The position numbers and the translations under genes were made by a program. A stretch of DNA of 64,000 nucleotides from Escherichia coli O157:H7 (lineage in GTDB: Bacteria; Pseudomonadota; Gammaproteobacteria; Enterobacterales; Enterobacteriaceae), in assembly GCF_013167455.1 (NCBI RefSeq), contig NZ_CP038328.1. The stretch is one strand, 5' to 3'. Below the pieces are notes generated by a model. It ran no database searches, had not been told where the DNA came from, and saw only the letters and a list, made by a program, of their open reading frames with translations. Of this stretch, positions 6,663-7,418 are shown one piece after another. Position 1 is the first letter of the stretch; each line of letters opens with the position of its first letter.

Positions 6663-7418
6663 TTAGGTATTAATTAAACAAATAAAGTTACTGTGCAGCC
6701 ACAAAAACGAAGCCGGGATAGAGGTAGAGACTTTAGCCGTGAGAAAACGTTCTGTCGCATCCTGCTTTCCTTCGCCAGTCACCAGTAACAAAACCTCGCG
6801 GGCATTGAGAATATCCTTCAGGCCTAAGGTGATCCCACGAGTCACGGGGCGACCCGCGGTTTTTAACATCTCATGTTGCTGTGTTCTGGCATCAAGTTGA
6901 CTGATATGGCAGGCCGGTTGCAGGTTTTCTCCCGGTTCGTTCAGCCCAAGATGACCGTTTTTCCCCAATCCGAGAACGCATAAATCCAGACCGCCTTTGC
7001 GCGCAATCAGGTTCGTTACCCGTTCGCACTCTGTCTCATTTATCTCTTCGGAGCGAAAGCTGATGAGCTGGTCTTCACGTAGCCCCAGCGGCTGCACGAT
7101 ATGCTGTTGCAGGAAAGTTTCGCAGGTACCAGGCATCGTTAATGGCAGATCCACCCATTCGTCGAGCTTCACGAAGGTGAGCTGGCTGACATCAACCTGC
7201 TGCTAGTGGATTTTTTCTACCAGATAATGATACGTCAGTAATGGCGTGGCTCCGGTCGCCAGGCAAATCACGGCATCCGGTTTGCTACGGATCACGGCCA
7301 ATAAATATTCGCTGGCACGTTCACTTAACGCCGTATAGTTTTCAACTTGCTGAAGGGTTTGCACAGGATGAAATTCCTTAAGTAAAGAGGCACCGCCAGA
7401 CGCAGTGCCTCGTTCCAT
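6663..7418 (-). pseudogene. agaI: Galactosamine-6-phosphate deaminase/isomerase AgaI interrupted by an in-frame amber codon (TAG at 7203-7205, codon 72)
   Basis: N-terminal 71 codons (MERGTASGG...LVEKIH) and C-terminal 169-codon ORF (GTG-initiated KLDEW...) are in the same frame, separated only by TAG plus 10 sense codons; full read-through would give 251 aa. Confidence 0.8.

Follow-up and report, generated by a model that had tools for sequence, protein, structure and literature searches.

We have found that the copy of agaI in this stretch of E. coli O157:H7 DNA, 64,000 nt long and hereafter called the window, is broken by a single amber codon, and we consider it almost certain that the gene is a fixed, lineage-specific pseudogene of O55:H7/O157:H7, one mark of a stepwise decay of the galactosamine branch of the pathway; this is the best explanation of the observations as a whole, and none of the data speak against it. 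Both the pseudogene, a case of ordinary gene decay, and its explanation are already known and published. EDL933 and Sakai carry the same two CAG>TAG mutations, one in agaI and one in agaC (Hu, Patel & Mukherjee 2013, BMC Microbiol 13:94, PMC3668189), which the same authors first pointed out in an earlier paper, their ref. 12, as cited in PMC3668189. The window shows agaI Gln72amber and agaC Gln8amber in an EDL933/Sakai-type background, that is, the published O157:H7 agaI(Q72am) allele without any difference, and the split agaI that the preliminary description mentioned for O157:H7 is the one published for these two strains (PMC3668189). What we add to the published picture is a small increment, namely the distribution and the relative age of the agaI and agaC lesions.

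The features of agaI in the window are as follows.

6663..7418, minus strand: agaI pseudogene, 251 codons plus stop, NagB-like putative GalN-6-P isomerase with one nonsense codon (from the translation and from PF01182 on the reverted protein)
7203..7205, minus strand: amber TAG, agaI codon 72 (from the sequence and alignment; published as CAG>TAG in PMC3668189)
7206..7418, minus strand: N-terminal remnant of agaI, 71 codons, LATGATP loop present and catalytic motifs absent, without a Pfam match alone
6663..7202, minus strand: C-terminal remnant of agaI, mechanical ORF from GTG 7172, 169 aa, matching Pfam profile positions 70-216 only

On the minus strand, 7418 to 6663 translates in a single frame as 71 sense codons, the TAG, a further 179 sense codons and a final TAA. 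The protein reads MERGTASGG...LVEKIH up to the internal stop and resumes with QQVDVSQLTFVKLDEW...CLINT before the terminal one, and codon 72 occupies bases 7205..7203 of the minus strand (CTA at 7203-7205 on the plus strand). An in-frame amber at codon 72 splitting a 251-codon gene, with both halves in the same frame, is what had been described from the sequence, and that description is exact in its coordinates, its codon number and its flanking peptide. Alignment with an intact agaI, a step that had been proposed, bears out the nature of the change: in an alignment with K-12, O55:H7 and 493/89, codon 72 of K-12, the one genome in which the CAG state was checked in this way, is CAG, and the Q72am substitution is a CAG>TAG change, a single C-to-T transition. 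RefSeq labels an identical agaI in an O157:H7 genome 'agaI, pseudo, internal stop'.

When the stop is reverted to Gln, AgaI matches the Pfam family Glucosamine_iso (PF01182) over residues 28-239 with an E value of 4.5e-20 and a score of 72.9 bits against a gathering cutoff of 27, which shows that the two halves are no accidental arrangement of ORFs. As it stands in the window, the frame does not run uninterrupted through the whole PF01182 domain, being stopped at codon 72, and the 71-aa N-terminal product gives no Pfam match. The nearest solved structure to the reverted protein is NagB of B. subtilis (PDB 2bkv, E 5e-35). NagB, the glucosamine-6-phosphate deaminase (PF01182; 2bkv; E. coli NagB PDB 1cd5), belongs to the same fold family as reverted AgaI and has the LATG-TP, LDE and GxGxNGHxGFNEPG motifs in common with it, whereas the copy in the window is cut off at residue 71. 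In the alignment to 2bkv the LDEW and GLGKNGHLGLNEPG motifs (GxGxNGHxGxNEPG) fall after the stop, so the truncated AgaI lacks the catalytic part of the fold. Judged by its sequence, then, the window agaI is a pseudogene of the Glucosamine_iso/NagB-like family and not a functional member of it. In the mechanism that we propose, the C-to-T change turns the CAG of Gln72 into TAG, translation would halt after 71 residues, before the LDEW and NGHxGxNEPG motifs, and no functional AgaI would be made.

The remainder of the aga cluster in the window is laid out as follows.

7419..8210, minus strand: agaD, galactosamine PTS IID, intact
8200..9003, minus strand: agaC, galactosamine PTS subunit IIC, the second lesion (from the translation; an intact 267-aa version is found in O55:H7 CB9615)
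8980..8982, minus strand: amber TAG, agaC codon 8 (CAG in O55:H7, 493/89 and LSU61; published in PMC3668189)
9042..9518, minus strand: agaB, galactosamine PTS IIB, intact
9685..10545, minus strand: kbaY, intact, in the operon agaS-kbaY-agaBCDI
10558..11712, minus strand: agaS, GalN-6-P deaminase/isomerase (intact ORF; genetics in PMC3668189)
12063..17079, minus strand: kbaZ-agaVWEF-agaA, GalNAc branch, all six intact, agaF with Gly91
17328..18137, plus strand: agaR repressor, intact

Translation of agaC (9003..8200, minus strand) gives MHEITLL, a stop and then GLSL..., with the TAG of codon 8 at bases 8982..8980; the second amber that had been noted in agaC is therefore present, and both lesions are CAG-to-TAG changes. 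Eleven genes are uninterrupted in the window (agaR, kbaZ, agaV, agaW, agaE, agaF, agaA, agaS, kbaY, agaB and agaD). No gene of the agaS-kbaY-agaBCDI operon lies beyond agaI, so the agaI stop is without polar effect.

We note that the agaC lesion is masked in current annotation. RefSeq/PGAP gives agaC of O157:H7 as a seemingly intact protein of 256 aa, WP_071525013.1 (PV15-279, excerpt L001 7449-8219), by starting it at codon 12, a CTG just past the amber; the first ATG, GTG or TTG start downstream of the amber is codon 59. Metabolic models built from a PGAP-type annotation of AgaC would credit O157:H7 with galactosamine uptake in error. Two further variants in the cluster were observed. The agaA gene (labelled nagA), intact in the window, is annotated as frameshifted in O157:H7 PV15-279 (L001 3227-4356), a strain-specific further aga lesion. 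Codon 66 of agaD (window 8014) is ACC (Thr) in the window, 493/89, LSU61 and O55:H7 DEC5B, and ATC (Ile) in O55:H7 CB9615 and the genomes identical to CB9615; the Ile66 allele looks derived within an O55:H7 subclade.

Among complete E. coli genomes agaI itself is nearly universal, being found at 97-100% identity in 5,264 of 5,426. A 61-mer with the agaI TAG at its centre has exact matches in 307 of the 5,426, and the 61-mer around the agaC TAG in 296; these are counts of exact 61-mer matches, and as they differ by 11 while 12 genomes with the agaI lesion only can be named, at least one genome must have a nearby SNP. The agaI of the window is 100% identical to that of O157:H7 genomes, and EDL933 agaI is one base off the window query with CAG restored, for which no 100% match was found among the complete E. 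coli genomes. The exact window allele has, then, no close intact relative among them.

The two lesions can be placed in order by comparison with related strains. O55:H7 CB9615 shares the agaI TAG, has an extra G at nt 148 of agaI (a frameshift upstream of the TAG), and its agaC is intact, codon 8 being CAG. Ten O55:H7-type genomes combine TAG72 and the +G frameshift at nt 148 with an intact agaC (including excerpt L003 19453-20209); between agaC codon 8 and agaI codon 72, a span of 1,843 nt, nine match CB9615 at 100% identity, and O55:H7 DEC5B differs by one base, with the +G and TAG kept and agaC intact. Since the extra G is present in all ten, it is a lineage marker and not a sequencing error. 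Strain 493/89, the sorbitol-fermenting O157 reference strain, and LSU61 have the agaI TAG without the +G and with agaC intact. O157:H7 LSU61 also has an internal deletion in agaB, which joins the 5' end to the final ~100 nt of the locus that precedes agaC (L006 1-210), an independent lesion of the galactosamine PTS in a strain whose agaC is still intact.

That the agaI TAG occurs with an intact agaC in ten O55:H7 genomes, 493/89 and LSU61 indicates that the agaI lesion is the older of the two. The order that these comparisons point to is agaI Q72am in the common ancestor of O55:H7/O157:H7, a second agaI lesion in O55:H7, and agaC Q8am only towards typical O157:H7. The two ambers had been described as independent, and the comparisons with O55:H7, 493/89 and LSU61 bear this out, placing the two events on separate branches and at separate times. 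With the agaI lesion first, agaI was not lost on account of a transporter that had already gone, and its loss before that of agaC fits the dispensability of agaI that has been shown experimentally. A second lesion, such as the +G of O55:H7, typically marks a gene on which selection no longer acts. A literature search on agaI/agaC and O55, which did not take in the earlier paper (PMC2258687) cited in PMC3668189, found no description of this order. The agaI TAG, the +G of O55:H7 and the agaC TAG serve as clean markers, in that order, along the lineage from O55:H7 to O157:H7.

The reason why agaI could be lost is given by published deletions. Deletion of agaI, of nagB or of both leaves growth on GalNAc normal in EDL933 and in E. 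coli C, and in E. coli C growth on GalN is normal as well, with or without ammonium (PMC3668189). Deletion of agaS blocks growth, and AgaS is accordingly the GalN-6-P deaminase/isomerase (PMC3668189); its deaminase activity in vitro was described by Leyn et al. 2012, as cited in PMC3668189. NagB is without a role in the Aga/Gam pathway, AgaI fails to complement the loss of nagB, and its own function is called 'now uncertain' (PMC3668189). The phenotypes of agaS and nagB deletions, proposed as a check on the sequence reading, are thus already on record, with growth blocked by the loss of agaS and unaffected by that of nagB, and they divide the suggestion that agaI is dispensable because agaS or nagB supplies the deaminase step: the part concerning agaS stands, while the part concerning nagB falls with the agaI nagB double deletion, which has no phenotype (PMC3668189). 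Loss of agaI would carry no cost for growth on GalNAc or GalN because AgaS, the gene for which is intact upstream in the same operon, does the deaminase/isomerase step. It was the agaI allele that gave the published clue for crediting AgaS instead of AgaI with the GalN-6-P deaminase step; beyond annotation the allele is of little significance.

The agaC lesion can be tied to a phenotype. O157:H7 still grows on GalNAc (PMC3668189), but EDL933 does not grow on GalN, a defect that plasmid-borne agaBCD of E. coli C corrects (unpublished data cited in PMC3668189). This rescue ties the GalN phenotype to the transporter genes, among which only agaC is damaged here. The agaC Gln8 amber arose separately and later, in the line leading to typical O157:H7; it takes away IIC of the galactosamine PTS, and loss of IIC accounts for the known failure of the strain to grow on GalN. 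The galactosamine-specific tail of the operon, agaBCDI, would then be eroding stepwise while the GalNAc branch is intact. Of the three explanations offered beforehand for two ambers in one operon, two hold: decay of the pathway in this lineage, which concerns its galactosamine branch, and dispensability of agaI on account of AgaS. K-12 is also an E. coli lineage with partial loss of the 13-gene cluster, by a 2.3-kb deletion (PMC3668189), which shows that the aga cluster is often dispensable. The outcomes differ: K-12, with genes removed by the deletion, has an intact agaI and grows on neither GalNAc nor GalN, whereas in O157:H7 point mutations put an end to the GalN branch and growth on GalNAc was kept.

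We infer, on the strength of laboratory growth on the two sugars, that losing agaI was neutral, and we also take it that relaxed selection is behind the erosion of the operon's tail. It is conceivable instead that the losses of agaI and later of the galactosamine PTS were adaptive, selected in O55:H7/O157:H7 for instance because, in the bovine gut, they spared the cell a toxic intermediate or the cost of a wasteful transporter, and the four-gene tail has indeed been hit repeatedly (the agaI TAG in the ancestor, the agaI +G in O55:H7, the agaC TAG in typical O157:H7 and the agaB deletion in LSU61), with the agaI and agaC nonsense alleles both fixed in about 300 genomes. Relaxed selection predicts recurrent hits equally, however, and in a young clonal lineage fixation is expected by descent alone. 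Moreover, deletion of agaI made no difference to growth in either strain tested (PMC3668189), and the divergence of the window from O55:H7 over the 24-kb region (9 SNPs and 1 indel in 23.8 kb) is unremarkable. We therefore think adaptive loss unlikely. On the same count, we make no claim of an excess of aga-gene substitutions between O55:H7 and O157:H7.

The authors of PMC3668189 had themselves considered substitution by nagB, a split enzyme of two chains, an amber suppressor and dispensability of agaI, and rejected the first three by deletions. An amber suppressor in the strain background was also raised in the preliminary description. Were there such a suppressor, or read-through of UAG, full-length AgaI and AgaC would be produced and the TAGs would be silent or regulatory. 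Low-level read-through of UAG by near-cognate tRNA-Gln is established, and as both lesions are CAG>TAG a supE-type suppressor inserting Gln would restore the wild-type proteins. Nevertheless, no tRNA gene lies within the 64,000-nt window, and glnX and glnV of O157:H7 Sakai both keep a CTG anticodon, by the annotation of the record and by ARAGORN alike, which means no supE-type allele at these two genes, to which the check was confined. Growth of EDL933 on GalN returns only with intact agaBCD, from which it follows that the agaC amber is not effectively suppressed in that background, and as EDL933 shows no phenotype when agaI is deleted, the pathway has no use for any product of read-through (PMC3668189). 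The frameshift of O55:H7 lies upstream of the TAG, so the agaI frame there is not under selection. A suppressor is neither needed nor indicated, and we regard this reading as highly improbable.

We give equally little credence to the idea that translation of both the 71-aa ORF and that of about 169 aa yields two chains which together form a working split enzyme. The first annotation of EDL933 did show agaI as split (PMC3668189), and the C-terminal ORF retains its Pfam match, but the N-terminal fragment is unrecognisable as a domain and is itself disrupted by the frameshift in O55:H7. Inspection of the sequence found nothing like a Shine-Dalgarno sequence before GTG 7172, the first possible start of the downstream half, and the published EDL933 deletion takes out both ORFs and leaves growth unaffected (PMC3668189). 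Suppression and a two-chain enzyme are thus both contradicted by the published genetics. An error of sequencing or assembly as the source of the agaI TAG is ruled out by the identical allele, found as the exact 61-mer in 307 independently assembled complete genomes, and by its independent description in published work (PMC3668189).

Two further differences from O55:H7 CB9615 were observed elsewhere in the window. An IS629/IS1203 element of 1,310 bp (713-2022) lies inside yraK, where it replaces 349 bp present in CB9615, and contains an Rfam ALIL pseudoknot at 1571-1687. The region 400-2400, which spans the IS629/yraK junction, is 100% identical in EDL933, Sakai and 86-24 (199 genomes in all), which, along with the identity of agaI, marks the window as typical O157:H7; in PV15-279 the IS is located in yraJ instead of yraK. 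Near rnpB (25401-25777, plus strand) TRF found no tandem repeat, and direct alignment showed instead that the window has, directly downstream of rnpB at about 25819-25931, one extra 113-nt unit with a terminator-like hairpin relative to CB9615, a case of copy-number variation of a repeat adjoining rnpB.
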